The position numbers and the translations under genes are program-made. 64,000 nucleotides of DNA. It comes from an uncultured Bacillota bacterium. Lineage in GTDB: Bacteria > Bacillota > DTU025 > MWDF01. The notes under the pieces were generated by a model. It saw only the letters and a program-made list of their open reading frames with translations, did not search any database and was not told where the DNA came from. The number at the start of each line of letters is the position of its first letter. The first letter of the stretch is position 1. The stretch lies in contig CAWGMK010000007.1 in NCBI GenBank assembly GCA_963823655.1, positions 225,908 through 289,907 on the forward strand. Reading direction: 5' to 3'. Shown here one piece after another: positions 36,339 to 55,632 of the stretch.

Positions 36339-36382
36339 ATATTATTTGATCTTGGCAATACCGTGTTTAGGGAGGCACATCA

Positions 36383-37477: not shown

Positions 37478-37666
37478 ATCCCAACTCTCCTTTCAATAGG
37501 CAGTTTCTACAAATGAAACAGGTATGACATTTTCCCGGAAACAAGCACTAAATCTGTGCTGGGCAACTAGCAATTTTACTCCCTGGCGAGAAGCATTCAG
37601 TCAAGCAGACATATAAGCCTTCAGCAATATTGAAGGTGAATGCCGAAGGGCATCACTGATTTTCGA

Positions 37667-39420: not shown

Positions 39421-40074
39421 TTAAACTCTTGCCTTCTTGACCTCGTTTATGAATTTCGCGGCGTGCTCAGCTAGTTCGTCCCATAAGCCGCCCTCTATCA
39501 TCTTCCTGTCGGTTAGCGAGGTGCCCGCACCTACGAAGCAAGCGCCGGCTTTAATGTATGCTCCGACATTGTCCAGGGTGATGCCGCCCGTAGGCGTCAT
39601 CCTGATCTGGGGGAAAGGACCAGCCATATCCTTGAAGAATTCCGGGCCAAGCTTAGTGGCGGGGAACACCTTCACTGCATCCGCCCCACCCTCCCAGGCT
39701 GTAAGAATCTCGGTGGGTGTGAAGGCTCCAGGGATGACAACCTTGGAATACCTCTTGGACATAGATATTATCTCCTGCTTGAAGACGGGGGATACGATGA
39801 AGTCGGCGCCCGCCAGTATGCAAAGGCGCGCAGTCTCCTCGTCCAATATCGTCCCTGCGCCTAAAAGCACCTTGCCCTTAAGCTTCTGGCCTACTTCTTT
39901 GATAACATCAATTGCGCCCGGCACGGTCATGGTTACTTCTATGGCTTTCACTCCACCGCGCTCAATGGCGGTAATCACATTGAGAAGTTCGGAAGGGTCC
40001 TTTGCTCTAATGACCGCGACTACTCCTGTTTCTACTACCAGTTTGAGATTGTCCTCCCTTTGCATTGACGACAA
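39421..40074 (-). CDS. eda: KDPG/KHG aldolase
   Basis: VAVIRA, IEVT, GAGT, FIVSP, TPTE, KVFPA and PTGG motifs. Confidence 0.93.
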   Translation of the reverse strand: MSSMQREDNLKLVVETGVVAVIRAKDPSELLNVITAIERGGVKAIEVTMTVPGAIDVIKEVGQKLKGKVLLGAGTILDEETARLCILAGADFIVSPVFKQEIISMSKRYSKVVIPGAFTPTEILTAWEGGADAVKVFPATKLGPEFFKDMAGPFPQIRMTPTGGITLDNVGAYIKAGACFVGAGTSLTDRKMIEGGLWDELAEHAAKFINEVKKARV

Positions 40075-40260
40075 TTAGTGCACCTCCTGCAAATGGCGCG
40101 GGTTTTCGTCTTCCGGACCGCCAGCCAACATGGCCCGCGCGAAATATTTCTTGAAAATCTCTTCCACAAAGAAGGATTCTTCTACACGAATGGAGAAAAT
40201 CCTCTTCATAGAAATAAAAAATAGCGATAATTTTCACAATCCTCGGAGGGACATGAATTT

Positions 40261-41370
40261 ATGCGAATAGACTCTATTGAACTCATACACGTCAGGATAC
40301 CATTGAAGGAGCCTTTCAGGATATCCACGGCTGAAGTATCCGAGAAAGACGCGATCCTTTGCATATTGGAATCGGGCGGCAAGACTGGGGTGGGCGAATG
40401 CTCCCCCATGTCGGGCAGCTTCTACAACGATGAGACGCCTGAAAGCTCGATAGCAGCCCTTAAGGACACGCTTGTGCCGGCTCTGCTCGCGGACGATCTA
40501 TCTAGTCCCGAGGATTTCTCACGAACCGCCTCTCATATCGAAGGCAACATGTTCGCCAAGGCGGGCCTCGAGATGGGGCTGTGGGACCTCTTCGGCAGGC
40601 TCTCGGACCGACCGATATATGAGATGCTCGGTTCGTCGTCCGAGGGAGTGCAGTCTGGCCTTGCAGTCGGCATATATGACAATGTAGAGGCCCTTCTGGA
40701 CAGGATTGAAAAGCATTTGCTGGATGGCTATGTGCGCGTCAAAGTGAAGATCAAGCCCGGCTGGGACGCCGAGCCCCTCCAGGCGATAAGGAAGAAGTTC
40801 AAGGGCATTGACCTGATGGTCGACGCCAACGCCTCCTATGCCATGGAGCATGCCGCAGACCTGAAGAGGCTCGATTCTTTCGGCCTCATGATGATTGAGC
40901 AGCCGTTCGCCCAGGACGCTCTTGAGGACTCGGCAAGGCTCCAATCAATGATCAGCACCCCCATATGCATCGACGAGAGCGCCGATTCGATGGGTTCGGT
41001 CGAGCGCGCAATCAAGCTTAAGGCCTGCAGCATCGTCAACATCAAGCTCCAAAGGGTAGGCGGCTTCGGCCCCGCCCTCAAGATGCACAACTACTGCGCC
41101 TCCAAAGGCATACCCGTCTGGTGCGGCTATATGCCGGAGCTGGGTATATCTACTGCCGGAGGCCTTCACATATCCGGCCTTCCTGGCTATTTGTACCCGG
41201 GCGATCTGGAGCCGAGCCTCAGATGGTTTACGGATGACATTACGACAGAGCCCATATCAATGTACCAGCCCGGCTACATAGAAGTGCCAAATGGCCCGGG
41301 CCTTGGAATTGGCCTGGACATGGACAAAGTAAGCAAATACGAAGTCTGGCGAGAGAAGTTCGCAAGATGA
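40261..41370 (+). CDS. o-succinylbenzoate synthase / N-acylamino acid racemase (enolase superfamily)
   Basis: KVKIK, DAN, IEQP, DES, NIK and PGD motifs. No other men genes nearby. Confidence 0.88.
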   Translation: MRIDSIELIHVRIPLKEPFRISTAEVSEKDAILCILESGGKTGVGECSPMSGSFYNDETPESSIAALKDTLVPALLADDLSSPEDFSRTASHIEGNMFAKAGLEMGLWDLFGRLSDRPIYEMLGSSSEGVQSGLAVGIYDNVEALLDRIEKHLLDGYVRVKVKIKPGWDAEPLQAIRKKFKGIDLMVDANASYAMEHAADLKRLDSFGLMMIEQPFAQDALEDSARLQSMISTPICIDESADSMGSVERAIKLKACSIVNIKLQRVGGFGPALKMHNYCASKGIPVWCGYMPELGISTAGGLHISGLPGYLYPGDLEPSLRWFTDDITTEPISMYQPGYIEVPNGPGLGIGLDMDKVSKYEVWREKFAR

Positions 41371-41374
41371 GGAG

Positions 41375-42385
41375 GTGCCTTATATGCCCGCGAGCATAAG
41401 GCAGGCTTTCAGAAACAAGGCATTCGGCAGGGTGTTCCCGGCCGTCCCGATCCCGTGGACTGCGGATGGCAGGATGCACGAGGCGGCGCAGGAGAAGTAC
41501 GTCGAGTACCTAACGGCATCAGGCGTGGGGGGAGCTGCCGTTTGGGCACATACGGGTAGGGGCCTTCACATCCCCTGGTCCGAGAAGATTAAGGTCATGA
41601 AGTCCTGGAGGCAGGGCTTTTCTGACGGAAGGCTATTGATAGCAGGCGTAGGCGCACTGCCCGACAGAAGCCTTTCGGACGCCGCTATGAAGGCCAAGTT
41701 CATGGAGGAGACCAGGAACATGGCAGAAGACGCCGTCTCATGCGGCGCCGACGCCTTCCTTGTTTATGCGCCTATTGCATGGCGCGACGCTCCCGACCAG
41801 GACGAAAAAGTGCTGGAATATCACAAGATGCTCTCCGAATACGGCAAACCGCTGGTGCTCTTCTACCTCTATAAGGAGGCGGGCGGCATAAGCTACAACT
41901 TCGAGCTTCTAAAGCAGTTGCTCGCCCTTCCGCAGGCTGCTGCGATAAAAATCGCCACCCTCGACTCGGTAACAACTTTCCAGGACGTGGCCGCGATCAT
42001 AAAGGCGGAACAGCCGGACCTCACCCTCATAACAGGCGAGGACCGTATGGTGGGCTACACCTATATGATGGGCGCGAAAGCGGCCTTGATTGGAATGGGT
42101 GCGGCTTGCACAAAGCCCCAGGTCTCCATGGCTAACGCCTGGTTCTCGGCGGATCACGCCAAATTCCTGCACGCAAGCGCGAAAGTGGATGCCTTCTCCG
42201 AGGTCACCTTCGCAAAGCCCCTGGACCGCTACATAATTCGCATGCTCTGGTCGCTCGTCGCCGAAGGCATCATACCTGAGGAGGCTGCCAACGACTGCAT
42301 GGGGCTCCAGCTGGACAGAAGCGAGATAGCCCTTATAAAGTCCACGATCGAGAACTTAGGCTGGATGGACTGGTCAGACAGATGA
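41375..42385 (+). CDS. DHDPS/NAL family class I aldolase-like protein
   Basis: TIM barrel pattern with AHTGRG in place of GTTGE, FYLY Tyr, Schiff-base Lys in AIKIAT and TGED. Confidence 0.8.
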   Translation: MPYMPASIRQAFRNKAFGRVFPAVPIPWTADGRMHEAAQEKYVEYLTASGVGGAAVWAHTGRGLHIPWSEKIKVMKSWRQGFSDGRLLIAGVGALPDRSLSDAAMKAKFMEETRNMAEDAVSCGADAFLVYAPIAWRDAPDQDEKVLEYHKMLSEYGKPLVLFYLYKEAGGISYNFELLKQLLALPQAAAIKIATLDSVTTFQDVAAIIKAEQPDLTLITGEDRMVGYTYMMGAKAALIGMGAACTKPQVSMANAWFSADHAKFLHASAKVDAFSEVTFAKPLDRYIIRMLWSLVAEGIIPEEAANDCMGLQLDRSEIALIKSTIENLGWMDWSDR

Positions 42386-43413
42386 GATTCGGCCTTGCCG
42401 GCTTCTCGCACTTCCATGCCCACTCCATGATCCAGGGGATGATGGAAAGGCATGATGTAGAAGTCGTCGCGGTGTCGGAGGCCGATGATGCGCTGTTTGC
42501 CCAACAGGCAAGCGGCTATAAGCTTAAAAGGTACAAAAGCGCCCTGGAAATGGCCGAACAGGAGAAGCTGGATGCTGTGGGCCTTGTAGAAAGGCCGGAC
42601 GAAAGATTTAAGACAGCCGTTGAGCTTCTTGCGAAGGGCGTACATGTGCTCATCGACAAGCCGGCGGCGGTAGAAGAAGAAGCGCTCGGCAAGCTAATGA
42701 ATGCGGCTGTCGCAGGCCCGGGGAAACTTTTCCCTTACTTCACAGTCCGGTACGAGAGGCCGGTTGCCAGGGCGATCGAGCTTATCAAGGCGGGCAAGAT
42801 CGGCAGCATAAGCTCCTTTACCAGCCTTAGGCCTCACAAGCTGCTCAAAGGCATAAGGCCGAACTGGTTCTGGGATATGGCGGGGGGAGTCGCGGTAGAT
42901 CTAGGGATACATGATATAGACATCTACAGGCTCGCCTGCGGCTTGGGCCCAGAAGAACAAGTTGATGCCTTCGGCGCCGCGGGCAACTTCAAGAAGGCCG
43001 GGACGCCGAGTTTTTCTGACAGCGCGCAGTTCATGTTGAGGCCCCTAACAGGGCCATCGGGCTCGTTCCTTGCGGACTGGCTGACTCCGTCGGCGGACCC
43101 GAGGCACGGGGACTGCGCTTATTTCATAGCGGGCACAAAAGGGAGAATTGAGGTAAGGAGCACCGGAGGTATCCCGGGCGAGGGGGAGGCCCTCGTGCTG
43201 GCCCTTGAGGATGAAACTCCGCGCATCATATTGGACGGGCCGGATTCTCCATCCGATATATTCGAGGATTTCGTGAAGACTGCCCACGGAGGGCAAGCCG
43301 GCCCCGGTTGGATAGACCTGGCGGCGGCAAACGGCATAGCAATTGTCGCGGCGAAGGCCTGTTCGGGCGGCAAGGTGGAAAGATACCCCGGCACGAGCCG
43401 GGCATGGAGGTAG
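42382..43413 (+). CDS. Gfo/Idh/MocA oxidoreductase
   Basis: HVLIDKP and GG...DLGIHDID motifs. Confidence 0.88.
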   Translation: MRFGLAGFSHFHAHSMIQGMMERHDVEVVAVSEADDALFAQQASGYKLKRYKSALEMAEQEKLDAVGLVERPDERFKTAVELLAKGVHVLIDKPAAVEEEALGKLMNAAVAGPGKLFPYFTVRYERPVARAIELIKAGKIGSISSFTSLRPHKLLKGIRPNWFWDMAGGVAVDLGIHDIDIYRLACGLGPEEQVDAFGAAGNFKKAGTPSFSDSAQFMLRPLTGPSGSFLADWLTPSADPRHGDCAYFIAGTKGRIEVRSTGGIPGEGEALVLALEDETPRIILDGPDSPSDIFEDFVKTAHGGQAGPGWIDLAAANGIAIVAAKACSGGKVERYPGTSRAWR

Positions 43414-43416
43414 GAT

Positions 43417-44313
43417 ATGTCTTCATACGGCATAATCCACGACGGGGCCAACGGAGAGGAAAGGAGCCGGCAGCTGGCAGGCGGCCTGGTTACCCTGTCG
43501 TCTCTTCTTGGCTCGCTGAGAAATGCCGAGAAAAGGGCGGCCGAGTACATACTCTCGAACACCAACGAGGTCATGTACCTGTCTATAACCGACCTTGCGG
43601 AGAAGAGCGGGACGAGCGAGGCTACAGTGTCGCGCCTGTGCCGCAGGCTTGGTTACAAAGGCTATCAGGAGATGAAGATATCGGCAGCCATGTCGGTCAT
43701 TCCCGAAAGGAAGCAGCTTGATGAGACGGCCAGCGAGTCCGACGATGTGCACACAATCTGTTCCAAGGTGTTTGGCGCGAGCATAAGGGGCTTGAACGAA
43801 ACCCTGTCCATACTAGACCAGGCGCAGCTGGAGGTGGCGGCCAAAGAGCTGTCCGAGGCGAGCAAGATAGAGTTCTACGGCAATGGGGGCTCTGCGGCAG
43901 TAGCCAAGGACGCCCAGCACAAATTCGTAAAGACCGGCATACCGACTGTCTATTACGAGGACGCGCACATGCAGCTGATGTCCTCCTCTTTGATGAAAAA
44001 GGGCGATGTGCTCGTCGCGATATCCTATTCAGGCAGCAACAAGGACATATTGGAGGCCATGAAGGTGGCCAAGGCGGCAGGAGCCTTCGTCATCCTTATT
44101 ACCGGCTTCGCAAAGTGCCCGCTTGCGAAAGTGGCGGACGTGACGCTGTGGGTCTCGGCAGGAGAGACATTCAAAAGCAAATCTTCAAGGTCCAGGATAG
44201 CACAGCTGTGCCTTCTGGACGCCCTGTATGTCGCCGTTATGCTCAAGCTTGGCGGCGGCGGCCTGGAGAGCCTCAGGAAGACCAGGGATGCGGTGGCAAG
44301 GAAGAGATTCTGA
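43417..44313 (+). CDS. MurR/RpiR family transcriptional regulator
   Basis: SEATVSRLCRRLGYKGY HTH plus SIS domain (G.GGS, ISYSG). Confidence 0.93.
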   Translation: MSSYGIIHDGANGEERSRQLAGGLVTLSSLLGSLRNAEKRAAEYILSNTNEVMYLSITDLAEKSGTSEATVSRLCRRLGYKGYQEMKISAAMSVIPERKQLDETASESDDVHTICSKVFGASIRGLNETLSILDQAQLEVAAKELSEASKIEFYGNGGSAAVAKDAQHKFVKTGIPTVYYEDAHMQLMSSSLMKKGDVLVAISYSGSNKDILEAMKVAKAAGAFVILITGFAKCPLAKVADVTLWVSAGETFKSKSSRSRIAQLCLLDALYVAVMLKLGGGGLESLRKTRDAVARKRF

Positions 44314-44332
44314 TGATGGAAGTGATTTTCTG

Positions 44333-45301
44333 ATGACGGAAGTATTGGTTTCCTCGACGTCATTCATGACCGGCTGCGGCAGGGCGTTGAAGATGCTAAA
44401 GGATAAGGGGTACGCGATCAGGACGAACCCCTCCGGCAAACCCATGGAGGCGGACGCGCTTAAAGCCGCTCTTGTTGGCTGCGACGGAGTGATCGCGGGG
44501 CTGGACAAATATGACGGGGGAACAATAAGGCAGTCGGAGGGCCTGAAGGTAATCTCCAGGTATGGCGTGGGCGTTGACAATGTGGACCTTAAAGCCGCGA
44601 CAGAGTGCAAAATACCGGTGGCCGTAACGCCTGGAGCCAACACCGAAGCCGTCGCCGACCTGGCATTTGCGCTCATGATGGCAACGGCGAGGAGCTTAGT
44701 CAAGGCGGACTCCCTGACCAGGGCGGGCGGCTGGCCCAAGATCTTCGGCAGCTCCGTTTGGGGCAAGTGCGTAGGTGTGGTCGGCACCGGTGCCATTGGC
44801 AGGGCATTCGCAAGAAGGCTTACGGGCTTTTCCGCGAGGATAATGCTGTTCGACGTCAAAGAGGATGCCGATTTTGCGAAAAGCGTCAACGGAGAATATG
44901 TGACACTGGAGAGACTGCTTGGCGATGCCGACTTCGTGTCCGTACATGTACCTCTCAACGCCGCGACCAGGGGAATGATAGGCAAGATGCAGCTGGCGAG
45001 CATGAAGAGCACCTCCTACCTTATAAACACCGCAAGGGGCGGCATAGTAGATGAGGAGGCCCTTGCCGACGCGCTGGAAGAGGGAGTAATCGCGGGGGCG
45101 GGAATCGACGTCTACATGCATGAGCCGCCCGCAGGCTCGAGGCTGGCACTGTCGGACAAGGTGGTCATGACACCTCACATGGGCTCCTATACCAGGGAAT
45201 CCGTCGAGATGATGGGCATGATGGCGGCCGAGAACCTCATAGACGCGCTTGAGGGGAGAAAGCCGAAGTATTTGGCAAACCCGGAGGTCTACACTAAGTA
45301 A
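44333..45301 (+). CDS. D-isomer 2-hydroxyacid dehydrogenase (phosphoglycerate dehydrogenase-like)
   Basis: RYGVGVDNVD, GTGAIG, NTARGGIVDE, EPP and TPHMG motifs. Start ATG 44333. Confidence 0.92.
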   Translation: MTEVLVSSTSFMTGCGRALKMLKDKGYAIRTNPSGKPMEADALKAALVGCDGVIAGLDKYDGGTIRQSEGLKVISRYGVGVDNVDLKAATECKIPVAVTPGANTEAVADLAFALMMATARSLVKADSLTRAGGWPKIFGSSVWGKCVGVVGTGAIGRAFARRLTGFSARIMLFDVKEDADFAKSVNGEYVTLERLLGDADFVSVHVPLNAATRGMIGKMQLASMKSTSYLINTARGGIVDEEALADALEEGVIAGAGIDVYMHEPPAGSRLALSDKVVMTPHMGSYTRESVEMMGMMAAENLIDALEGRKPKYLANPEVYTK

Positions 45302-45316
45302 CAAGGAGGGCTGGAT

Positions 45317-46381
45317 TTGGGAAAAGTTAGAGTCGGCATAGTCGGATCGCGTTTTGCGGCAGGGCTTCACGCCAGGGCATATGCAAGATGCCAGGGCGCG
45401 GAAGTGGTCGCAGTGGCGGCGCCCGATAATCTCAATGAGTTCGCTGACGAGTATTCCATACCTAAGAGGTATTTGGATTACAAACAGATGCTCGCCCAGG
45501 AGCATCTGGACCTGGTAAGCATCTGCGTCCCGAACTTCCTGCATTACCCCGTTGCTATGGACTGTGCGGAGGCCGGCGTGAACGCGATCAGCGAGAAGCC
45601 GCTTGCCACGAAGCTTGAGCACGGAGTGGCAATGGTCGAGAAGTTCAAGCAGAAGGGCCTGAAGCTGTTCTACGCCGAGGACTGGCTGTTCGCGCCCGCC
45701 ATCAAAAGGGCATTGCAGATAATAAAGGAGGGCGCGATAGGCGAGGTGTACTTCATCAAGGCGAAGGAGACACATAACGGCTCGCACTCGCCGTTCGCCT
45801 CGAAGCTGTCAACTTGCGGCGGAGGTTCCATGATCCACCTGGCAGTGCACCCGGCCGCCTTCATTGCGATGGTTGCGGGCTCTAAGCCTTGCGAAGTCAT
45901 GGCAATGAACACAGAGGGGCTCGACAAGAACTTCGTCCATAAGAACTTCGAGGGCGAAGATTGGGGAGCCTCCCTGGTCAAGTTCGAAAACGGCGTGAGG
46001 GCCATCATTGAGGGCAACTACATTACGCTAGGCGGCATGGACGACAGGATAGAAGTCTACGGTTCGAAGGGAAATCTGCACATAAACCTCACTCAAGGCT
46101 CGCCTTTGCAAGTCTACAGCAGCGCGGGCTACTCCTATGTAGTTGAGAAGGCCGACATGTCCGTCGGCTGGACCAGGCCCGCTGTTGACGAGGATGCGGG
46201 CTTAGGCTACGTAGATGAGATCAACGCTTTCGTAAAGGCAGTGGCAGAGGGCCTGCCGGCGCCCGATGGCGGAAGCGGAGCGGACGGTCTTGCGGCGCTT
46301 TCGATAATACTGGCGTCATATGAATCCGCAAGGCTCGGCAAATCGGTCAATCCACAAGTATTATTGAAGGAGCTGATGTAA
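45317..46381 (+). CDS. Gfo/Idh/MocA oxidoreductase
   Basis: GIVGS, PNFLH, EKP and GGG...HLAVH motifs. Confidence 0.9.
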   Translation: MGKVRVGIVGSRFAAGLHARAYARCQGAEVVAVAAPDNLNEFADEYSIPKRYLDYKQMLAQEHLDLVSICVPNFLHYPVAMDCAEAGVNAISEKPLATKLEHGVAMVEKFKQKGLKLFYAEDWLFAPAIKRALQIIKEGAIGEVYFIKAKETHNGSHSPFASKLSTCGGGSMIHLAVHPAAFIAMVAGSKPCEVMAMNTEGLDKNFVHKNFEGEDWGASLVKFENGVRAIIEGNYITLGGMDDRIEVYGSKGNLHINLTQGSPLQVYSSAGYSYVVEKADMSVGWTRPAVDEDAGLGYVDEINAFVKAVAEGLPAPDGGSGADGLAALSIILASYESARLGKSVNPQVLLKELM

Positions 46382-47563
46382 ATGAGCGCACCAAAGATTA
46401 AGTTCGCAGGCCTTGAACTGAAGAACCCCTTCGTAATAGCATCCGGTCCCGTCTCCTCGTCCTTAAGGAAGGTAAAAAGATGCGAGGAATTTGGAGCAGC
46501 CGGCGTCTCCTTGAAGCTTACTCTTCAGAAGCAGCCCTGGAAGGCGCAGCTGAGGATGTACTCGATTCCCGGCGAGGTCAGCATAGTATGCCACGACAAG
46601 AGGCTCGACGAGGACGAGGGCATAGAGCTAATCAGCCAGTGCCGCCAGGAGACGGACCTTGTCATATTCGCCAACATGGGCCACATCGGAGAGGACATCG
46701 AAGGCTGGCAGAGGCTGGCCAGGGAGCTTGAGAAGGCGGGGGCCCACGCCCTGGAACTCAACCTCATATGCCCCAACCTGACATTCTCGCAGAAGCGCAT
46801 GGGACAGGCAGTAAGTTCATCGTACGGAGCAGCCGCGGGCCAGAATCCCGAGGCATGCTACAAGATAGTCAAAGCCCTTAAAGAGGCAGTCAAGATTCCG
46901 ATAATACCCAAGCTAACACCCAACGTCAGCAATATCGCGGACACCGCTCAGGCCTGCGAAGACGCTGGCGCGGACGGCCTTTGCCTGGCCGGCGGCCAGT
47001 CATCGCTGCCGAGAGTAGATATCGAGCACGGCGGCAAGCCCCTGTATCCGCTACTTGACGGTGCGTCTTTCGGAAGCCTGGGCGGGCCGGTCGCCCTCAC
47101 CCAGTCGTTCGCACTTGTCGCCCAGGCGGCAAGGGCCGTGAAGATCCCGATCATCGGAGGAGGCGGCCTTGCGACATGGCAGGACGGCGTCAACTTCATG
47201 ATGTGGGGCTCGACCCTGGTAACCGCCTGCACAGAGCCCATGTGGAGGGGCTTTGGCGTAATAAGGGACATCGTGGACGGCATGGAGAAGTTCCGCGTAG
47301 GCCACGGTTATGCCAGCTATCAGGACATGACGGGCCTTGCGTTGCCCTACCTCAAGATAAGCAAGGAACTAAAACCCGACCAGGCAGTCGCAATAATTGA
47401 CCACGATGCGTGCATCAACTGCATGAACTGCGTGGAGCTCGGCCACTGCGACGCCATCACCGAGAAGAACGGCTCTCCCGTCGTGGACGAGTCCCAGTGC
47501 GTAGGATGTGCCATCTGCGTCGAGGTATGCCCGGTGAAGTGCATCTCGATGAAGAGGCAGTAG
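46382..47563 (+). CDS. dihydropyrimidine dehydrogenase PreA-like FMN protein with 2x[4Fe-4S] C-terminal domain
   Basis: KNPF..ASGP, ELNLICPN, KLTPN, IIGGGG, CINCMNC...C and CVGCAICVEVCP motifs. Confidence 0.85.
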   Translation: MSAPKIKFAGLELKNPFVIASGPVSSSLRKVKRCEEFGAAGVSLKLTLQKQPWKAQLRMYSIPGEVSIVCHDKRLDEDEGIELISQCRQETDLVIFANMGHIGEDIEGWQRLARELEKAGAHALELNLICPNLTFSQKRMGQAVSSSYGAAAGQNPEACYKIVKALKEAVKIPIIPKLTPNVSNIADTAQACEDAGADGLCLAGGQSSLPRVDIEHGGKPLYPLLDGASFGSLGGPVALTQSFALVAQAARAVKIPIIGGGGLATWQDGVNFMMWGSTLVTACTEPMWRGFGVIRDIVDGMEKFRVGHGYASYQDMTGLALPYLKISKELKPDQAVAIIDHDACINCMNCVELGHCDAITEKNGSPVVDESQCVGCAICVEVCPVKCISMKRQ

Positions 47564-47628
47564 GGCAAGAGGACAAGCTTGCCTCAAGCAGCCTGAAAGG
47601 GGCGGAAGCCCTTAAGGAGGACCCTAGC

Positions 47629-48357: not shown

Positions 48358-48368
48358 GGAGGGGTAGA

Positions 48369-49539
48369 ATGAGAAGGGCAATTACCGTTCTGGCGTGCAT
48401 CGCGCTATTAGTGTCGGTCGGGATTAACACGTATGCTGCTCCCGAGCCGATAGTCATCGGTTTCATAACGGCTCTTACTGGCGGGACCAGCCTCTGGGGC
48501 AACCAGGAGCGCAACGGCGCGGTATTGGCAGCTGAGGAGATCAACGCCAAGGGCGGCATCCTCGGAAGGCCGATCAAGCTGATCGTCTACGACCACAAGG
48601 GCCAGCCCGCAGAGGGCGTTTCCGCATACCGCAGGCTCGTTGACGAAGACAAGGCCGTCGTAATCGGCGGAACCCACTTCAGCAACATAAGCCTCGCGAT
48701 AGCACCCGTAGCCGAGCAGAAGAAGGTACCGATCATAGGGCAGGCAATAGAGCCCAAGGTCACGGTGCCCGAGCCCGGCAAAGTTAACATGTACACCTTC
48801 CTTGCTCAGCCCTCATCGGCGCAGCAGGGCCAGATGATGGCGAGGTTCGCCTTCGAGAACCTGGGCGCCAAGAGCGCGGCATGCCTCAGTCGACAAGTCG
48901 AATTCCTATTCGACGTCGCAGGCCGAAGCCTTCAGGGACTACTTCGTATTCAGGGGCGGCACCGTAACCAACTACATCGAGTACGCGGCCGGAACCGTTG
49001 ACTACAAGGCGTTCCTGACCCAGATCAAGCCCAAGAACCCTGAAGTAGTGTATCTGCCCCAGTACGCCCAAGCAGGCGGCTTGCAGGTGAAACAGGCCAT
49101 AGAGCTCGGCATCAAGGCCAAGTTCATCGGCTCCAACAGCCTCTCGGACCAGAACTACATCGACGCATGCGGCGGCATAGTCAACGCCGCGGGCACATAC
49201 CACTTGTTCAACGTCAACTTCGCCGATGCGAAATTCGCCCCGTTCCACAAGGCATATGAGGCGAAGTACGGCGAAAAGGTCCAGACATACCACGCGGTGT
49301 TCGGCTACGACGACCTCTACCTAATCGCCAAGGCAATAGAGATCGCGGGCAAGGCTGAGCCCGAGGCAATAAGGACCGCACTCGAGAACCTGAAGAACAT
49401 ACCGATACTGGCAGGCGACGGGCTATTCACCATGAACCCCGCGACCCACCAGCCGGTAAATATGCCATCGTTGGTATTCGTATGGAACCAGGACAGCACC
49501 AGAAGCCCGTTAAGGTTCATCTACCCCGGCGAAAAGTAA
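48369..49539 (+). CDS. HAAT (LivJ-like) ABC substrate-binding protein; frameshift ~48888
   Basis: ALTG, EEINAKGGILGR and GYD motifs. ORFs 48369 and 49048 join after removing one base. Confidence 0.85.
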
Positions 49540-49558
49540 ATCAAGGAGGCGCGGAAGA

Positions 49559-50716
49559 ATGAGGAGAGCACTTATCATCATCGCAGCGGTCGTTGCCATT
49601 GCGTCGCTGAGCGTTGGCGGCGTATTCGGCGCCGACCCGATACTCATCGGTGAGATCGCAGCCCTTACAGGCGCTACCTCACAGCAGGGCCTGCAGGAGA
49701 GAAACGGCTGCATACTGGCAGTTGAGGAGATCAATGCCGCAGGAGGCCTTCTGGGAAGGCAGATCAAGCTCGTAACCTATGACTTCAAGGGCCTGCCGGC
49801 TGAGGGCGTCTCCGTGTATCGCCAGCTCGTGCAGGAAGGCGCGAAAGTCATAATCGGGACCAACTTCTCCAATGTCAACCTGGCAATCGCCCCGGTCGCC
49901 GAGCAGCTCAAGATACCCGTGGTATCAAACGCAATCGAGCCAAAGGTGACCATACCGGCAGCCGGCCAGATCAACAAGTATCACTTCCTCACGCAGCCCA
50001 GCGCCATCGAGCAGGGCGCAGTTGTAGCCCGTTTCGCCCTTGAGGGCCTCAAGCTGAAGACGGCAGCCTGCCTGGTCAACAACGGCAACTCGTTTGCCAC
50101 CTCCCAGGCCGAAGCCTTCAGGGACTACTTCAATGCCCATGGCGGCAAGGTAGTCGAGTACATCGACTACGCGACCGGCCTTCTGGACTTCAAGGCCCTT
50201 CTTACAAGGATCAAGGCATCCAACCCTGATTGCATTTACCTCGGCCAGTACGCCCAGGAGTCTGGCCTGCAGGTCAAACAGGCAAGGGAGCTTGGAATCA
50301 AGTCCACCATAGTAGGCAACAACACGCTCAGCACACCGGTGTTCATCGAGACCGCCGGCGGCGCGTCCGTAGTCGAGGGCTCTTACTACGTAGTAGGCGT
50401 CAACATGGCAGAAGCCAGACAGGTCGCCTTCAACGAGAAGTACACCAAGAGGTTCGGCGAGCCGATAATCACGACCAACGTCCAGTTCGGCTACGACAAT
50501 ATGTACATAATCGCAGACGCCATCAAGAGGGCTGGCTCGGCTGAGCCTGAGGCGATACGGACGGCGCTCGAGACCACCACAAAGGTGAAGATACTGCAGG
50601 GCGACGGCAGCATAACGCTCGATCCCAAGACCCACAGGCCGGACAATATGCCGCTGTGGATATTCAAATGGGAAAATGGCAAGACCGTACCGCAGAAACT
50701 GTATTATCCTTATTGA
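49559..50716 (+). CDS. HAAT (LivJ-like) ABC substrate-binding protein, paralogue of the previous gene
   Basis: EEINAAGGLLGR and the same architecture. Confidence 0.9.
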   Translation: MRRALIIIAAVVAIASLSVGGVFGADPILIGEIAALTGATSQQGLQERNGCILAVEEINAAGGLLGRQIKLVTYDFKGLPAEGVSVYRQLVQEGAKVIIGTNFSNVNLAIAPVAEQLKIPVVSNAIEPKVTIPAAGQINKYHFLTQPSAIEQGAVVARFALEGLKLKTAACLVNNGNSFATSQAEAFRDYFNAHGGKVVEYIDYATGLLDFKALLTRIKASNPDCIYLGQYAQESGLQVKQARELGIKSTIVGNNTLSTPVFIETAGGASVVEGSYYVVGVNMAEARQVAFNEKYTKRFGEPIITTNVQFGYDNMYIIADAIKRAGSAEPEAIRTALETTTKVKILQGDGSITLDPKTHRPDNMPLWIFKWENGKTVPQKLYYPY

Positions 50717-50740
50717 TTAGAATAGGTTAGAAGCCTGTAG

Positions 50741-50769
50741 GGGCGCGGGAGGCTTAACCTTCCGCGCCC
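50741..50769 (+). terminator. hairpin after the SBP genes
   Basis: GGGCGCGG(G)AGG...CCTTCCGCGCCC stem. Confidence 0.6.
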
Positions 50770-50835
50770 ACAAAAAGCCCGGAGGGAACAACGGGCACGA
50801 CCTCGCTACCAAAGCCTTGCCATCCGGCGTTAGGA

Positions 50836-51717
50836 GTGCTTGAAGTGCTCATACAGCAGATCATAAACGGAATATCGGTGGGGTCCATGTACGCCATGCT
50901 GGCAGTTGGATTCTCGCTCGTCTACAACATACTGGGTATTGCGAATTTCTCCCACGGGGCGATGATGGCCCTTGGGACCTATTTCTGTTACTGGATAGTG
51001 TTATACATCGGAGTGCCGGTGCCGGTGGCAATAGTCGGCGCCATCGCGCTTGCGGGGATCAGCTCCATGTTCGTGGAGAAGTTCACCCTGAGGGTACTGA
51101 GGAAGAGAAACCAAAGCTCCATCTACTTCTTCATAGCCTCGCTCACGATATTCAACCTCGTCACAGCCGTGCTCATCTACATCTCCAGAGGCAATATCGT
51201 GTCCTATCCGAAGGCATTCCTCACCGGCACGATTAACTTCGGGAATATCTACATCCCGTGGATAGATATCGGGATGCTTGTTATAGCCCTCGCCTGCCTG
51301 GGGGCATTGTCGTACATCCTATTCAAGACCAGGTTCGGGCTCGCCGTAAGGGCCAGCTCTTACAACCTCAGGGCCGCGGCGCTCATGGGGATGAACATCG
51401 ACGTGGTGATCGGAGGGGTGTTCCTGGTATCGGGGGCACTGGCCGGGGTCACCGGAGCTCTTCTGGGTGTGAAATATGCCGTGTACGCGAAAATCGGCGA
51501 CTTCGTCTACAAGGCCCTGTTCGCCTGCGTTGTGGGTGGCCTTGGGAGCCTTACGGGGGCGGTCCTGGGAGGCATACTCATCGGCCTTATGGAGACTTTC
51601 GTCAGCGCATACATAAGCTCGGCGGTAAGCCCTGCTATTACATTCGCGTTCCTGGTCGCGCTGCTTCTAATCAGGCCTCAGGGCCTGAGCGGCAAGACCA
51701 CGGACGAGAAGATATAG
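50836..51717 (+). CDS. HAAT ABC permease (LivH-like)
   Basis: QQIINGI..G..Y, NFSHG, GGLGS and RPQGL motifs. Confidence 0.92.
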   Translation: MLEVLIQQIINGISVGSMYAMLAVGFSLVYNILGIANFSHGAMMALGTYFCYWIVLYIGVPVPVAIVGAIALAGISSMFVEKFTLRVLRKRNQSSIYFFIASLTIFNLVTAVLIYISRGNIVSYPKAFLTGTINFGNIYIPWIDIGMLVIALACLGALSYILFKTRFGLAVRASSYNLRAAALMGMNIDVVIGGVFLVSGALAGVTGALLGVKYAVYAKIGDFVYKALFACVVGGLGSLTGAVLGGILIGLMETFVSAYISSAVSPAITFAFLVALLLIRPQGLSGKTTDEKI

Positions 51718-51735
51718 GAAGCCTGGTGATGAGAA

Positions 51736-52587
51736 ATGTCATTTTATGAGGGCGTACTGATATTAACAGGCATAGTAGTGATAGTGACCCAGGGGGTCTT
51801 CGTGCTGACGGGCCTCACCGGGCTCTTCTCGCTGGGCCAGGCTGCCTTCGTAGCCGTGGGGGCGTATGCCGCGGGCATAGCCAACATGAGATTCGGATTC
51901 GGCTTCCTGCCGGCGATACTCGTCGGTGTAGTCGCTAGCCTGCTTGCGAGCTTTTTAGTCGGGGCTCCGAGCCTGAGGCTAAAGAAGACTTACTTCTCGC
52001 TGGCGACGATAGCCTTCGGCTACGGCGTGGAATTGATAATCACGGTATCCTCCTGGACGGGAGGCTCCATCGGACTAATCGGGGTCCCCAACATCACCAG
52101 GTTCTGGCATGTCGCGGTAGCCTCGGTGATCGTCATCTGGCTGGTCAGGAACTTCAAGCTTTCCAGATACGGCAGGGCATGCGTCTCTGTGAACACCGAC
52201 GAGACGGCGGCGCAGGTTTACGGCGTGAACTCGTTCTGGGCAAAGCAGATAGCGTTCTCCCTTGCGGCGTGCATAGCAGGCCTTGCAGGAGGGCTCTTCT
52301 CCTTCTACCTAGGCTACCTGTCGCCCGACATGTTCGGAATAGCGCTTTCCACCGAATATTTGATAATGGTCTTCTTCGGAGGGCTCAAGAGCCAGACGGG
52401 AGCGGTGCTTGGAGCCGTGATCCTGACGGCTTTGATGGAAGCTTTGAGGACGGCAGCGGAATGGCGCATCATAATCTACTGCCTGGTGATCCTGATTACA
52501 ATCCTTTTCAGGCCTTCGGGCGTATTCGGCAAGTGGGAGCTTTCGCTTCCCAGGCTTAGGAAGCAGGGAGGTGAGCGCAATGCCTAA
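51736..52587 (+). CDS. HAAT ABC permease (LivM-like)
   Basis: SLGQAAF, LRLK..YF..AT and S.YGR motifs. Confidence 0.92.
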   Translation: MSFYEGVLILTGIVVIVTQGVFVLTGLTGLFSLGQAAFVAVGAYAAGIANMRFGFGFLPAILVGVVASLLASFLVGAPSLRLKKTYFSLATIAFGYGVELIITVSSWTGGSIGLIGVPNITRFWHVAVASVIVIWLVRNFKLSRYGRACVSVNTDETAAQVYGVNSFWAKQIAFSLAACIAGLAGGLFSFYLGYLSPDMFGIALSTEYLIMVFFGGLKSQTGAVLGAVILTALMEALRTAAEWRIIIYCLVILITILFRPSGVFGKWELSLPRLRKQGGERNA

Positions 52588-53356
52588 TACGATGCCAAGC
52601 GTGCTTGTAATATCGGGAGTGGGCAAGTCCTTCGGAGGCCTAAGGGCCGTAGATTCGCTTTCCATAGAGCTTAAACAGGGCGAGATACTGGGGCTAATCG
52701 GACCTAACGGGGCGGGCAAGACTACGGTGCTCAATCTGATCAGCCGAGTCACATTCTGCGACAACGGCAGCATCACCTTGGAGGGGCATGACGTTGGAAG
52801 GTGCAAGCCGTACGAGGTCTCGGACTTCGGCCTGGCCAGGACCTTCCAGGAGATACACCTCTTCCAGGGCATGAGCGTCATGGACAACATGAAGGCGGCA
52901 TGCCACCTGTCTGGCAGGTACAGCCTGATAGATGCAATCCTTAATACACCGAAAAAGCAGAAGGTCGAAAGGCGCATCAGCGAATCGTGCATGCAGATGC
53001 TCAGCTTCTTCGGCCTGGAAGCCGACGTCAACAAGGACGCGAAGTCTCTGCCATACGGAAGGCAGAAGCTCCTTGAGATAGCAAAAGCGCTGGTCACCGA
53101 CCCAAAAGTGCTTCTTCTGGACGAGCCTGCGGCAGGTTTGAACGATGAGGAGACCAAGCAGCTGCTGTCACTGGTGAAAAAGGCCAAGGAGCGCTTCGAT
53201 CTGAGCATAATAGTAATCGAGCACACGATGGACTTCATCGCGAACATCTCCGACAGGATAGTCGTGATGAACTTCGGAAGCAAACTTTGCGAGGGCACAT
53301 GGGATGAGGTCAGGTGCAACCCCGACGTCCTGAAGTGCTACCTGGGGGAGGACTGA
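52580..53356 (+). CDS. HAAT ABC ATPase (LivG-like)
   Basis: GPNGAGKTT, LPYG, LLDEPAAG and IEH motifs. Confidence 0.93.
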   Translation: MPNTMPSVLVISGVGKSFGGLRAVDSLSIELKQGEILGLIGPNGAGKTTVLNLISRVTFCDNGSITLEGHDVGRCKPYEVSDFGLARTFQEIHLFQGMSVMDNMKAACHLSGRYSLIDAILNTPKKQKVERRISESCMQMLSFFGLEADVNKDAKSLPYGRQKLLEIAKALVTDPKVLLLDEPAAGLNDEETKQLLSLVKKAKERFDLSIIVIEHTMDFIANISDRIVVMNFGSKLCEGTWDEVRCNPDVLKCYLGED

Positions 53357-53358
53357 GC

Positions 53359-54078
53359 ATGCTGGAACTTAAGGATGTAAATGTAAGCTACGGCGCGGTC
53401 CGCGCCCTAACAGGCGTCAGCATAAAAGTGGAGGAGGGCACCATTGTAACGCTCATCGGGGCCAACGGCGCCGGCAAGAGCAGCCTTCTTAACGCAGTAT
53501 CAGGCGTCATCCCTTTCAAGGGTGAGATCTCATGGAAGGGCAAGAAGCTGCCGCCTCTTCCTTCGGAAATCGTGAAGGCCGGTATCGTGCAGGTGCCCGA
53601 GGGAAGGCAGATCTTCTCCAACCTTTCGGTGTATGAGAACCTGCTTGCGGGCGCTTACCTGAGATGGGAGAAGGTCAGGATTGCCGCAAACCTAGAGAGG
53701 GTCTACAAGCTTTTCCCCAGGCTCAACGAGAGGAAAGCGCAGTCTGCAGGCACGCTTTCAGGGGGCGAGCGACAGATGCTCGCAATTGGCAGAGGGCTTA
53801 TGAGCGAGCCGCACTTGCTTCTGATAGACGAGCCCTCGCTCGGTCTTTCACCGCTTCTTACCGCCGAGGTGCTGAACCTCATCGTGGAAGTGAACAAGCA
53901 GGGTGTCACGGTTCTCTTAGTCGAGCAGAACGCGAGGAAGTCGCTGGGCATAGCCCACAGGGGTTATGTGCTGCAAAACGGCAAAGTGGTAATGGAGGGC
54001 ACCGGCAGGCAGCTGCTCGATGACCCGTCGGTCCAGGAGGCTTACCTCGGGGTGTCCACGAAGGACTGCCCTATCTGA
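53359..54078 (+). CDS. HAAT ABC ATPase (LivF-like)
   Basis: GANGAGKS, PEGR, LSGGERQ, DEPS and EQN motifs. Confidence 0.93.
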   Translation: MLELKDVNVSYGAVRALTGVSIKVEEGTIVTLIGANGAGKSSLLNAVSGVIPFKGEISWKGKKLPPLPSEIVKAGIVQVPEGRQIFSNLSVYENLLAGAYLRWEKVRIAANLERVYKLFPRLNERKAQSAGTLSGGERQMLAIGRGLMSEPHLLLIDEPSLGLSPLLTAEVLNLIVEVNKQGVTVLLVEQNARKSLGIAHRGYVLQNGKVVMEGTGRQLLDDPSVQEAYLGVSTKDCPI

Positions 54079-54095
54079 TCTAAGGAGGACGAAAA

Positions 54096-54867
54096 ATGGC
54101 TTTGATGAGGCAATTTGCGGTGGACAAGCTACAAGTCCTGGTACATGACACGAGGAAGGAAAGCGGAATCGCCGCAGCCGAGATGGCCGTGAAGGCGATA
54201 CTTGACGCAGTGTCCAGAAAGGGCGAGGCGAATGTCATATTCGCGGCAGCCCCATCGCAGGACGACCTGTTGGCGGCGCTTCTTACCGACAAGAGGATAC
54301 CCTGGAGGAAGGTCAACGCCTTCCACCTTGACGAATACCATACCCTTCCCAACGGCGCGCCCCAGAGGTTCGACGTGTTCCTCAAGAAGAAGATATGGGA
54401 TGCAGTCATGCCCGGTAGCATATTCCCCGTAGTGCCCGAGGACGGAATGAAGGCGGCCGACATCGAGAAGAGGTACAAGAAGCTGATGGAAGGGCATATG
54501 CCCGACCTTGCGCTTGTGGGCGTCGGGGAGAATGGCCACCTGGCCTTCGTGGATCCGCCTTTTGCAGACTTCGAGGACAAGGCGACGATCAGGGAAGTAG
54601 TGCTCGATGAGGTGTGCCGCAACCAGCAGGTGAACGACGGCGCCTTCCCCAAGATTCGAGGACGTGCCCAAGACTGCCGTCACCATGACCATACCGACGA
54701 TCATGAGAGCCAAAACCATAGTTGCCATAGTGCCCGGGCCCAGGAAAGCGGAGGCCGTAAAGAACATGCTGAAAGGGCCGATAGTGACCGCTTGCCCCGC
54801 ATCTGTTCTTAGAAGGCATGCGGACTGCGCCCTGTTCCTTGATTCTGCTTCTGCCGGCAAGCTCTAA
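54096..54867 (+). CDS. glucosamine-6-phosphate deaminase-like (NagB/6PGL fold); frameshift ~54655
   Basis: AAAPSQ, FHLDEY, GVGENGHLAF and QQVNDG motifs. C-terminal VPG..KA.AV...CPAS.L..H lies in the +1 frame. Confidence 0.85.
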
Positions 54868-54906
54868 GGTTAGGGGCGGCTTCAGGCCGCAAGGAGGCGA
54901 GCGTAT

Positions 54907-55632
54907 TTGAGAAAGTATAGGATACTGCTGCTTGCGTCTGCGCTTCTGCTTTTCCCGGTAACGCTCAATTTCATGTCTCCGTATGTCTCCTTGCAGGGGG
55001 CGATCGAGGGGATAATTTCCGGAAGCCTCATCCTCTTCGGGCTGATGTTCCTATTCGCGCCGCTTTTGGGCAGGCTATGGTGCGGCTGGCTGTGCCCAGG
55101 AGGCGCCGTGCAGGATCTTGTGGCGCCGGTTAACGGCAGGAAGCCGAGAAGGTTCATCTCCCTTACGAAGTACTTCATCTGGATCATATGGTTCGGGGCG
55201 ATCGTGGTCCTTCTGATCAGATCGGGCGGGCCTTTTAAGCTGGCTCCGCTGTACATGACGGAGAATTACGTCTCGGTGGACGAGCCGTTCAAGTTCATCA
55301 CTTACTACGGCGTAGTCTTGATATTGCTCGTAGTTGCCCTTCTGGTGGGAAGAAGGGGCGCGTGCCACACGATCTGCTGGATGGCCCCGTTCATGGTTTG
55401 GGGGATGCTGGCAGGCGACGTGGTCAAGATACCGTCCCTGCACATTGCGCACAAGCAGGAGGCTTGCACTAGTTGCGGGGAATGCAAGAAGACATGCCCT
55501 ATGAGCCTTGACCCCGTGCGGTCCGCAAAGGCGGGCAAGCCACCGTTCGGGTGCATCAACTGCGGGGAGTGCGTCGGCACCTGCAGCAAGGGAGCCCTCT
55601 CGTTCAAGTTCGGGGTAAGGAAAGTAAAGTAA
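54907..55632 (+). CDS. membrane 4Fe-4S polyferredoxin (NapH/MauN-like)
   Basis: TM helices, GR.WCGWLCP, C...CW, CTSCGECKKTCP and CINCGECVGTC motifs. Confidence 0.85.
   Translation: MRKYRILLLASALLLFPVTLNFMSPYVSLQGAIEGIISGSLILFGLMFLFAPLLGRLWCGWLCPGGAVQDLVAPVNGRKPRRFISLTKYFIWIIWFGAIVVLLIRSGGPFKLAPLYMTENYVSVDEPFKFITYYGVVLILLVVALLVGRRGACHTICWMAPFMVWGMLAGDVVKIPSLHIAHKQEACTSCGECKKTCPMSLDPVRSAKAGKPPFGCINCGECVGTCSKGALSFKFGVRKVK

Follow-up and report, generated by a model that had tools for sequence, protein, structure and literature searches.

Which compound is broken down by a tightly packed set of genes that places an N-acylamino acid racemase-like enolase, an amide hydrolase and a branched-chain-type importer among sugar-acid enzymes? 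The question is raised by an operon in a window of 64,000 nucleotides, the whole stretch analysed here, from the genome of an uncultured bacterium (G000:C7:225908-289907; G000 comprises 2.3 Mb in 13 contigs and is 97% complete) whose relatives carry the label 'uncultured Clostridia bacterium'. The best explanation is that two evolutionary modules have been joined into one catabolic operon, which is induced by its substrate and controlled by an RpiR-type regulator. With a probability of roughly 0.4, it imports and catabolises an N-acylated amino-sugar acid of the sialic-acid-like or N-acetylhexosaminate/-uronate type.

The genes were called from the open reading frame (ORF) listing and from Pfam and NCBIfam profile searches of the window proteins. 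These searches confirmed what had been noticed in a sequence-only reading of the window, namely 16 co-directional genes (40261-55632, plus strand) with a divergent eda (39421-40074, minus strand). The families named there also held, whereas the gene order and the starts of the creatininase and 2-hydroxyacid dehydrogenase genes were amended and two breaks in reading frames were added. The features, in their order along the window, are as follows.

39421..40074, minus strand: eda, KHG/KDPG aldolase (PF01081 149 bits; TIGR01182 183.5 bits, cut-off 156)
40168..40240, no strand: near-invariant part of the eda/NSAR intergenic region (alignment of four congeners)
40261..41370, plus strand: NSAR/OSBS-family enolase (TIGR01928 264.9 bits, cut-off 200.65)
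41375..42385, plus strand: divergent DHDPS/NAL-family enzyme, here DHDPS-like (PF00701 55.6 bits, cut-off 22.1)
42382..43413, plus strand: Gfo/Idh/MocA oxidoreductase 1, Gfo1, of module A (Pfam)
43417..44313, plus strand: RpiR/MurR-family regulator with HTH_6 and SIS domains (Pfam, NCBIfam)
44333..45301, plus strand: D-isomer-specific 2-hydroxyacid dehydrogenase, 2HADH (PF02826 186.9 bits)
45317..46381, plus strand: Gfo/Idh/MocA oxidoreductase 2, Gfo2, of module B, its stop abutting the PreA-like start (Pfam, NCBIfam)
46382..47563, plus strand: PreA-like flavoenzyme of the DHODH/DPD fold with a C-terminal 2x[4Fe-4S] domain (DHO_dh 89.4 bits; NF006183 225 bits, cut-off 335)
47629..48357, plus strand: creatininase-family metal amidohydrolase (PF02633 175.6 bits, cut-off 31.3)
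48369..49539, plus strand: SBP1, Liv-type (Peripla_BP_6) binding protein, frame broken (Pfam)
49559..50716, plus strand: SBP2, Liv-type binding protein, paralogue of SBP1 (PF13458 216 bits)
50836..54078, plus strand: LivH, LivM, LivG and LivF, permeases and ATPases of a HAAT-family ABC transporter (Pfam, NCBIfam)
54096..54867, plus strand: NagB-like deaminase/isomerase, frame broken (Pfam, NCBIfam)
54907..55632, plus strand: NapH-like membrane polyferredoxin (Pfam, NCBIfam)

The spacing between genes ranges from -43 to +19 nt, except for 119 nt before LivH and ~40 nt before the NapH-like gene; most junctions are overlaps or at most 19 nt, as had been described. The G+C content of the operon is 0.57, compared with 0.545 for the whole genome. 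The DHDPS-like gene probably starts at the ATG at 41384. The true starts of the 2HADH and creatininase genes are likely 44333 and 47629, each later than the opening of its ORF (44228 for 2HADH), and the latter is preceded by AAGGAGG. Eda scores above the cut-off of its curated model and is the sole eda match in the genome (tblastn). The near-invariant stretch 40168..40240 contains a short imperfect inverted repeat (40190-40200 / 40230-40240) and may serve as operator or promoter; scans for promoters and terminators found no signal above shuffled controls.

Synteny was analysed by tblastn of 25 window proteins on the contigs of relatives. In keeping with the conserved neighbourhood on which the sequence-only reading depended, the cluster is syntenic in three congeners (G002, G004 and G006) and in two further genomes of the class (G007 and G013). 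G004 carries the entire cluster with the divergent eda, G006 carries it as far as the contig end, and both have an intact SBP1 and two tandem creatininase genes, while parts of the cluster lie on short contigs in G002. The divergent placement of eda is the same in these three congeners. In G013 the genes are rearranged and point in one direction (NSAR, DHDPS-like, Gfo1, Gfo2, PreA-like, creatininase, SBP1, SBP2, LivHMGF, RpiR, 2HADH, eda), so that eda lies inside the operon, as it does in a Bipolaricaulota locus (L128). The regulator gene is kept in G004, G006, G002, G007 and G013, and in the same five genomes Gfo1 follows the DHDPS-like gene. Among 41 relatives, close matches to the creatininase (E<=1e-99) were found only in G002, G004, G006 and G013, besides the window's own genome. 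PreA-like matches occur at E<=1e-60 in 6 of 21 class genomes, including three of the six other genomes of the genus, and, at the stricter E<=1e-100, in 8 of the 401 genomes sampled from the phylum. The NapH-like gene had no match in the G004, G006 or G013 loci, and its junction with the NagB-like gene is bridged by metagenome contigs of close relatives. It is co-directional but is not a conserved member of the cluster, contrary to the earlier assignment of the polyferredoxin to the operon.

Downstream of the cluster, G004 carries an SDR and an FGGY kinase gene, and G013 an SDR, a LarA-like and a 6-phosphogluconate dehydrogenase (6PGDH) gene. Profile searches identified the SDR of this tail as D-mannonate oxidoreductase (NF006132, 368 and 354 bits, cut-off 281) and the LarA-like protein as a putative hexonate epimerase (NF052594, 636 bits, cut-off 500); the tails of relatives also include FGGY gluconokinase-like or KDG-kinase-like genes and 6PGDH. 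In the window's own genome, the SDR, FGGY, LarA-like and 6PGDH tail genes lie on contig C6 behind a LacI gene. This sugar-acid cluster (C6:15447-27674, L107) reads in one direction LacI, a D-mannonate oxidoreductase-type SDR, FGGY, a Ni-dependent putative hexonate epimerase and 6PGDH, and in the divergent direction a Gfo/Idh/MocA gene, TctCBA and two xylose-isomerase-like TIM-barrel genes. In G004 and G013 some of these genes are joined to the operon.

The operon is a fusion of two separable modules. In G007 they lie on two contigs: one carries RpiR, 2HADH, Gfo2, PreA-like, SBP1 and SBP2 (module B), preceded by LarA-like, FGGY and Zn-dependent alcohol dehydrogenase (Zn-ADH) genes, and the other carries NSAR, DHDPS-like and Gfo1 (module A) behind genes for a sigma-54 activator and for a sensor kinase that includes an SBP_bac_3 domain. 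A single contig of another genome of the phylum, G315, holds both modules together with NagA (TIGR00221 273 bits, cut-off 226), a ROK gene, LarA-like, Zn-ADH and NagB-like genes and a second PreA-like copy; here Gfo1 is ~2.4 kb downstream of the DHDPS-like gene, with NagA in between. The record of this contig (JBLNBQ010000006.1, L027 / L125; G+C 0.67) is labelled Chitinophagales, and its proteins are 53-62% identical to those of the window. The label is doubtful because the genome was placed in the window's phylum. The genes, their families, their synteny and the two-module structure were established directly from these comparisons.

Module B comprises the importer, Gfo2, the PreA-like, NagB-like and creatininase genes, 2HADH and Eda. 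An alignment-based scan for the PreA-like protein yielded 21 loci, of which four class loci and the G315 locus were set aside, leaving 16 distant loci. A Gfo2-like gene is present in 10 of these 16 and adjoins the PreA-like gene in nine of the ten. NagB-like genes accompany it in 9/16, eda in 4/16, and creatininase, a mannonate-oxidoreductase-type SDR and a HAAT system in 3/16 each. Outside the class, module B occurs in taxa that include metagenome-assembled genomes of Chloroflexota, Bipolaricaulota, Bathyarchaeota and Aerophobetes. According to Pfam, the order is IclR, an NMT1-type ABC system, two creatininases, NagB-like, Gfo2, PreA-like, 2HADH, eda, SDR, 2HADH and FGGY in the Bipolaricaulota locus. 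It is NagB-like, KDG-kinase-like PfkB, eda, IclR, PreA-like, Gfo, an SBP_bac_5 ABC system, creatininase(s) and SDR in Chloroflexia, and NagB-like, Ldh_2, Zn-ADH, PreA-like, Gfo and a xylose-isomerase-like TIM barrel in Bathyarchaeota. LivHMGF stands behind Gfo2-PreA-SBP in L116, L117 and L125, and the L117 cluster includes a NagC-like ROK gene.

The PreA-like protein keeps the NLICPN cysteine and the KLTPN motif, and its top solved relatives are dihydropyrimidine dehydrogenase (DPD) and dihydroorotate dehydrogenase (DHODH) B. It falls outside PreA proper, with its NF006183 score 110 bits under the cut-off and no PreT gene adjacent. No PreT-type partner was found in the operon, and in the genome PF14691-bearing genes are present only at C6:217.8 kb and C13:116 kb. 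The 2HADH resembles glyoxylate and 2-ketoaldonate reductases; its top NCBIfam match, glyoxylate reductase (250.9 bits), is under that model's cut-off.

The creatininase belongs to PF02633 by its profile score, and the alignment shows that it keeps the motifs EQH, GTD, GHGG and HAGExETS, which we take to be the metal-site motifs of the family. It is under the equivalog cut-offs for MftE (96.5 vs 172 bits), creatininase (77.1 vs 235 bits) and IolN (64 vs 245 bits). An assignment of the operon enzyme (62 bits) as IolN was rejected because the true IolN of the genome lies on contig C12 (C12:160973-161893, 530 bits, cut-off 245). The presence of this 3-dehydro-scyllo-inosose hydrolase (L133) indicates that a Thermotoga-type inositol route is encoded in another part of the genome. 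The window has a single creatininase copy, and tandem pairs are present in G004, G006, the Chloroflexia locus L121 and the Bipolaricaulota locus L128 (coordinates L128:4074-5514, L121:17146-18658 and L013:8871-10519). The second copy lacks the HAGE motif in L128 and has an insertion of ~10 residues in L121 and L128. There are hints in these alignments that the pair may form a heteromer with one degenerate subunit.

The NagB-like motifs FHLDEY and GIGENGHLAF.DPP are conserved in 8/8 sequences and are presumably signatures of the NagB type (DEY with GxGxxGH..F.(E/D)P) rather than of the lactonase (Pgl-type DER). Against the NagB equivalog, the broken window copy scores 40 vs 237 bits and the L128 orthologue 141-148 bits, under the cut-offs. 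For the binding proteins, five amino-acid-binding Liv-type structures served as pocket references. These share the motif (S/T)PxAT(N/Q/G)(P/D) and G/D-(E/D)-G at positions that we assume hold the alpha-amino and alpha-carboxyl groups. At these positions SBP2 has SNAIEP and GNNT, and SBP1 has QAIEP and GSNS. Both proteins match Peripla_BP_6 and neither has the LivJ/LivK-like amino-acid pocket; as judged from these residues, the predicted pockets are not of the amino-acid type.

Module A comprises the enolase, the DHDPS-like enzyme and Gfo1. The enolase belongs to the NSAR/OSBS family and scores ~265-270 bits to the solved NAAAR/NSAR structures 1SJA, 1R0M and 2ZC8. Searches of the genome, which is 97% complete, detected neither MenB (TIGR01929) nor MenD (TIGR00173), and for this reason a role as racemase or another role is more likely for the predicted enzyme than OSBS. 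The DHDPS-like protein has the features of a class I aldolase of the DHDPS/NAL family: the profile match, a TIM-barrel fold (Z 27-34 to members) and an invariant lysine. Lys189, invariant in 18 sequences, would be the Schiff-base lysine, and HTGRG and TGEDR are motifs of the subfamily. Its equivalog scores are low (dapA 49 vs 206 bits, NanA 35.7 vs 281 bits). The AlphaFold model has a pLDDT of 93.2, and Foldseek ranks N-acetylneuraminate lyases first; taken together, the scores, Foldseek and VIA-align do not single out DapA, NanA, KdgD, KDG aldolase or Pyr4H2C deaminase as its function.

The DHDPS-like protein has 1275 homologues at E<=1e-20. For neighbourhood counts 80 loci were kept, 78 of them outside the genus. 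A protein of 420-436 residues, here U2, is encoded in 72 of these 78 loci and adjacent in 71; the same loci include an NSAR-like enolase in 37, a second protein, U1, in 22, an M20 peptidase in 14 and a NagB-like gene in 12. U2 matches DHO_dh weakly, and its predicted fold resembles those of DHODH and dihydrouracil dehydrogenase. U1 (440 residues, no Pfam match) was considered as an enzyme of these sister clusters and rejected, as it resembles a transcription regulator. A PreA-like gene is present in one of the 78 loci, which lacks U2, and in the loci of the window lineage U2 is absent and the PreA-like gene is present. Since the DHDPS-like enzyme is nearly always accompanied by a DHODH-fold protein, the PreA-like protein may fill the place of U2 in the window lineage. 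The sister clusters use many importer types, and M20 and GNAT genes accompany NSAR in them.

Two genes of module B are broken in the window. An extra nucleotide at 48888, relative to two congeners, splits the SBP1 frame, and another at ~54651 splits the NagB-like frame, whose C-terminus reads on in another frame to 54867. Contigs of the four best-matching public metagenome runs were compared (X1-X3 from wastewater and X4 from sediment, two studies); no run contained half of the window's words, and two RNA runs contained a share of 0.06-0.08. Contigs 90-99% alike to the window DNA occur in the wastewater and sediment runs. The nucleotide at 48888 is missing from every covering contig (runs X1 and X3), and that at 54651 is missing from the covering contigs of 4/4 runs. 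NagA (window 8926-10108), the FGGY kinase (C6:23436-24903) and the true IolN on C12 are likewise split, each by a frame break or stop. The absence of the extra bases from the contigs of relatives and the similar splits in these unrelated genes make assembly indels the simplest reading of both insertions; this reading is not proven, because the compared contigs come from other strains.

We infer the substrate class and every chemical step that follows from these gene families and neighbourhoods. An N-acylated amino-sugar acid fits best because the operon combines enzymes of the NSAR, NagB and NAL/DHDPS types with an amide hydrolase, sugar dehydrogenases and an RpiR regulator, and because the sister clusters include a hexonate/KDG tail and NagA and ROK genes. 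Module B would import a nitrogen-bearing sugar derivative and convert it to keto- or deoxy-hexonates, and module A would handle the stages of an N-acyl-alpha-amino-carboxylate and a 2-keto-3-deoxy-acid. After uptake, the NSAR-type enzyme could epimerise C2 or dehydrate the substrate, the creatininase-type hydrolase would remove the N-acyl group, and the NagB-type enzyme would deaminate and isomerise the product to a keto acid. Gfo1, Gfo2, 2HADH and the PreA-like enzyme would carry out redox tailoring. The probable part of the PreA-like enzyme, by analogy with DHODH and DPD, is to reduce or introduce a C=C bond adjoining a carbonyl or carboxylate. The DHDPS-like enzyme and Eda would then release pyruvate by aldol cleavage.

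Several observations weigh against this assignment. No amino-sugar-acid pathway is known to use an enzyme of the DHODH/PreA fold, and Gfo2 and the PreA-like protein, the most conserved pair, are thus left without a reaction. HAAT transporters are not known to carry such compounds. Module B of G007 lacks a creatininase orthologue, the best match in that genome having an E value of 5.6e-6. The ranking by Foldseek is not borne out by VIA-align, which ties the DHDPS-like model with YagE, NAL, DapA and HOGA1 (Z 32.9-34.2), so the fold gives no preference for a sialate-type lyase. The operon contains no kinase gene, and on contig C6 the FGGY reading frame is interrupted; searches of the genome gave two altronate-dehydratase-like genes but neither UxuA nor Edd. 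The interpretation of the SBP and NagB motifs uses assumed rather than computed residue roles. Finally, the modules are separable and could therefore serve two substrates.

A narrower and unlikely form of the same idea is that the operon and its relatives constitute an anaerobic route for nonulosonic acids (di-N-acyl compounds of the pseudaminic or legionaminic type) or similar amino-sugar acids of envelopes or extracellular polymeric substances (EPS). The NAL-like lyase would then work with the DHODH-fold flavoenzyme, the creatininase pair would strip the N-acyl groups, the NagB-like enzyme would take off the amine after oxidation by a Gfo-type enzyme, and the PreA-type Fe-S flavoenzyme would reduce a sugar-derived enone, a reaction not known for this family. 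A literature search turned up no catabolic pathway for nonulosonic acids of the pseudaminic or legionaminic type. Such acids are reported in wastewater-sludge EPS in the available text of a preprint (10.1101/2020.11.02.365007).

The catalytic cysteine and KLTPN motif of the PreA-like protein, and its closest structures, DPD and DHODH B, could also point to reductive degradation of a free or sugar-linked N-heterocycle of the nucleoside or ureide kind. The PreA-like enzyme would reduce a uracil- or orotate-like ring, the creatininase pair would open the cyclic amide, the NSAR-type enzyme would racemise an N-carbamoyl or N-acyl amino acid, and the Gfo, NagB-like and Eda enzymes would take the sugar part. 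This would suit the tandem creatininase genes that accompany the PreA-like gene in G004, G006, Chloroflexia and Bipolaricaulota, and the NMT1/THI5-type binding protein of the Bipolaricaulota cluster. However, the operon lacks a PreT-type partner, Gfo2 and PreA-like genes occur without creatininase in G007, L116 and L117, the NagB-type motifs, NagA/ROK and the mannonate and hexonate enzymes of sister clusters would have no role, and no candidate natural compound is evident. We consider this explanation unlikely. Somewhat less likely still is a glycated amino acid of the Amadori, Heyns or opine type, whose polyol or sugar part would be oxidised by the Gfo enzymes and whose C2-N bond would be split by the NagB-like protein as a deglycase, the amino-acid part passing to NSAR and the DHDPS-like enzyme and the sugar part to Eda. 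The mixture of amino-acid-type parts (HAAT importer, NSAR) with sugar-type parts is as expected for such a compound, module A of G007 stands behind a sensor kinase whose SBP_bac_3 domain is of the amino-acid type, and a merged operon with one importer would suit a two-part substrate. Yet the cluster has neither a kinase nor a SIS-type deglycase of the Frl/Fra/Gfr kind, the binding proteins lack the residues common to amino-acid-binding relatives, and the PreA-like and creatininase proteins would be without a role.

Catabolism of cell-wall (peptidoglycan) fragments is about as doubtful as the glycated amino acid. It would make the creatininase a muramoyl or peptide amidase and the NSAR-type enzyme a D/L epimerase for N-acyl-D-amino acids or dipeptides, let the DHDPS-like, DHODH-fold and Gfo1 proteins reverse the diaminopimelate pathway to pyruvate and aspartate semialdehyde, and assign the NagB-like and RpiR proteins to the amino sugar and 2HADH to D-lactate. 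The DHDPS-like, DHODH-fold, NSAR-like and M20 proteins do recall DapA, DapB, DapF and DapE, and their genes lie close together in Clostridia that ferment amino acids; M20, M24 and C69 peptidases are numerous in the window, and RpiR-family regulators include MurR. However, the DHDPS-like/U2 clusters of Paenibacillus have a CUT1 sugar importer, Gfo and a xylose-isomerase-like enzyme and neither NSAR nor M20; the alignment places no arginine at the position of the substrate-binding arginine of DapA (an assumed residue role); and this reading does not account for Eda or for the tail of mannonate, hexonate and 6PGDH enzymes. A cyclitol or aminocyclitol degraded by a Thermotoga-type inositol route is improbable. 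Here Gfo would produce a diketone, an IolN-like opening of the ring by the creatininase-family enzyme would give a 5-keto-hexonate, and a reductase, an epimerase and a kinase would lead to 6-phosphogluconate or KDPG. The creatininase family does include IolN (NF041098, 64 bits for the operon enzyme), Gfo2 matches iolG at 119.5 bits, under the cut-off, and the sister clusters hold IolM-like Zn-ADH and IolO-like TIM-barrel genes and a tail that handles 5-keto and hexonate compounds, but the true IolN is on C12, far above the operon enzyme in score, and the NagB-type motifs, NSAR and PreA-like protein would have no role. It is highly improbable that the locus is decaying or no longer functional, or that chance has placed two unrelated pathways next to each other. 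The frameshifts in SBP1 and the NagB-like gene and the separate contigs of the G007 modules would agree with this; against it, both insertions are missing from all covering contigs of close relatives, the like splits in unrelated genes point to assembly indels, 14/16 genes of the operon are intact and tightly packed, and the modules co-occur in the genus, G013 and G315.

The preference for an N-acylated amino-sugar acid thus keeps one part of the sequence-only reading and weakens another. A nitrogen-bearing sugar derivative ending at Eda gains from the NagB-type motifs, the NagA and ROK/NagC-like genes of sister clusters and the hexonate/KDG tail. The reading is limited by the two separable modules, which speak against one indivisible pathway, by the non-conserved polyferredoxin and by the binding proteins without amino-acid-pocket residues, and the data do not distinguish between the Amadori/opine, nucleoside and N-acyl amino-sugar acid options listed there.

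Known systems were compared with the operon. Nan clusters comprise the NanA lyase, NanK/ROK, NagA, NagB, an RpiR-type NanR and a Gfo-type NanOx. A DHDPS/NAL-family enzyme, a NagB-type enzyme, RpiR and Gfo/Idh/MocA oxidoreductases are shared with the operon, and the sister clusters are further nan-like in their NagA and ROK genes and many importer types. However, the operon lyase is far from NanA in score, NanE was not found in the genome, and nan clusters have no counterpart for the NSAR enolase, the PreA-like/U2 flavoenzyme, the creatininase, the HAAT importer or the hexonate tail. In Geobacillus, an NSAR, a succinyltransferase and an M20 desuccinylase convert D- to L-amino acids. The enolase family is the same, and M20 and GNAT genes are present in the sister clusters, whereas the operon has no acyltransferase or M20 gene and its enolase is set among sugar-type enzymes.

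Reductive pyrimidine catabolism proceeds through PreT/PreA and dihydropyrimidinase. The DHODH-fold FMN domain, the 2x[4Fe-4S] tail, the catalytic cysteine motif and an amide hydrolase encoded nearby are in common. Differences are the PreA-like score below the NF006183 cut-off, the missing adjacent PreT, a Gfo/Idh/MocA gene as conserved neighbour and a hydrolase of the creatininase type instead of dihydropyrimidinase. Hexuronate and hexonate routes use UxuB, KduD, KdgK, Eda, GntK and Gnd, and the Thermotoga inositol route uses IolG, IolM, IolN and IolO. Relatives share with the former D-mannonate oxidoreductase, hexonate epimerase, a gluconokinase- or KDG-kinase-like gene, 6PGDH, Eda and IclR, but the functions of UxuA, UxaC-type enzymes and Edd are either undetected or encoded outside the cluster. 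The likeness to the latter lies in the operon's creatininase-family member, IolN's family, and the difference in the true IolN being elsewhere in the genome.

The oxidative chitin pathway for GlcNAc1A consists of OngIT, OngB, OngC, OngD and KdgK in the available text of PMC9537276. As described there, its logic is shared: an N-acetyl amino-sugar acid is treated as an N-acyl amino acid, deacetylated and deaminated to a 2-keto-3-deoxy acid, with KDPG aldolase last. The enzymes named are of unrelated families (a D-aminoacylase, a PLP deaminase, RidA and an SSS transporter), and that text names no enolase, DHDPS-like, Gfo or DHODH-fold enzyme or creatininase (PMC9537276). The neighbourhood of the anaerobic riboflavin 'fin' genes was rejected as a match, its genes being different in the available part of PMC13492142 (RibF, class I aldolase, ADH, ALDH and glycine-reductase-like genes). 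A literature search, with supplements outside its scope, found no described pathway that covers this gene set, in agreement with the earlier statement that no characterised pathway with this combination is known.

Other features of the window were recorded. Directly upstream of eda, 21000-39000 is an island of low G+C (0.458 vs 0.545 for the genome) with genes for a CotH kinase-like protein, an RCC1-repeat protein, MarR, an ArsP-type permease, an Opp-type ABC system, an M20 peptidase, DUF2703, a cupin and an MFS protein; it may be acquired DNA. A second HAAT system lies at 59116-63275 and includes a LivM-type permease fused to a LivG-type ATPase (61494-63275, 593 residues). At 7610-14939 a GNAT acetyltransferase, NagA, a 448-residue protein without a Pfam match, two M24 peptidase-like genes and, on the other strand, a PfkB kinase may form another cluster for amino sugars or peptides.

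The operon brings together two conserved enzyme partnerships for which no characterised member was found. One is that of the DHDPS/NAL-like enzyme with a DHODH-fold protein (71/78 loci, many phyla), and the other is that of Gfo/Idh/MocA, the PreA-like Fe-S flavoenzyme and the NagB-like protein in uncultured Clostridia, Chloroflexota, Bipolaricaulota and Bathyarchaeota. The DHDPS-like/U2 variant is testable at the bench because cultured species carry it, among them Paenibacillus timonensis, P. barengoltzii, P. macerans, Clostridium malenominatum and Wansuia hejianensis (loci L030, L031, L036, L056 and L062). Knowledge of the substrate would provide a new catabolic pathway for dominant organisms of wastewater sludge and sediments, and a DHODH-fold enzyme would for the first time have a function beyond pyrimidine metabolism.

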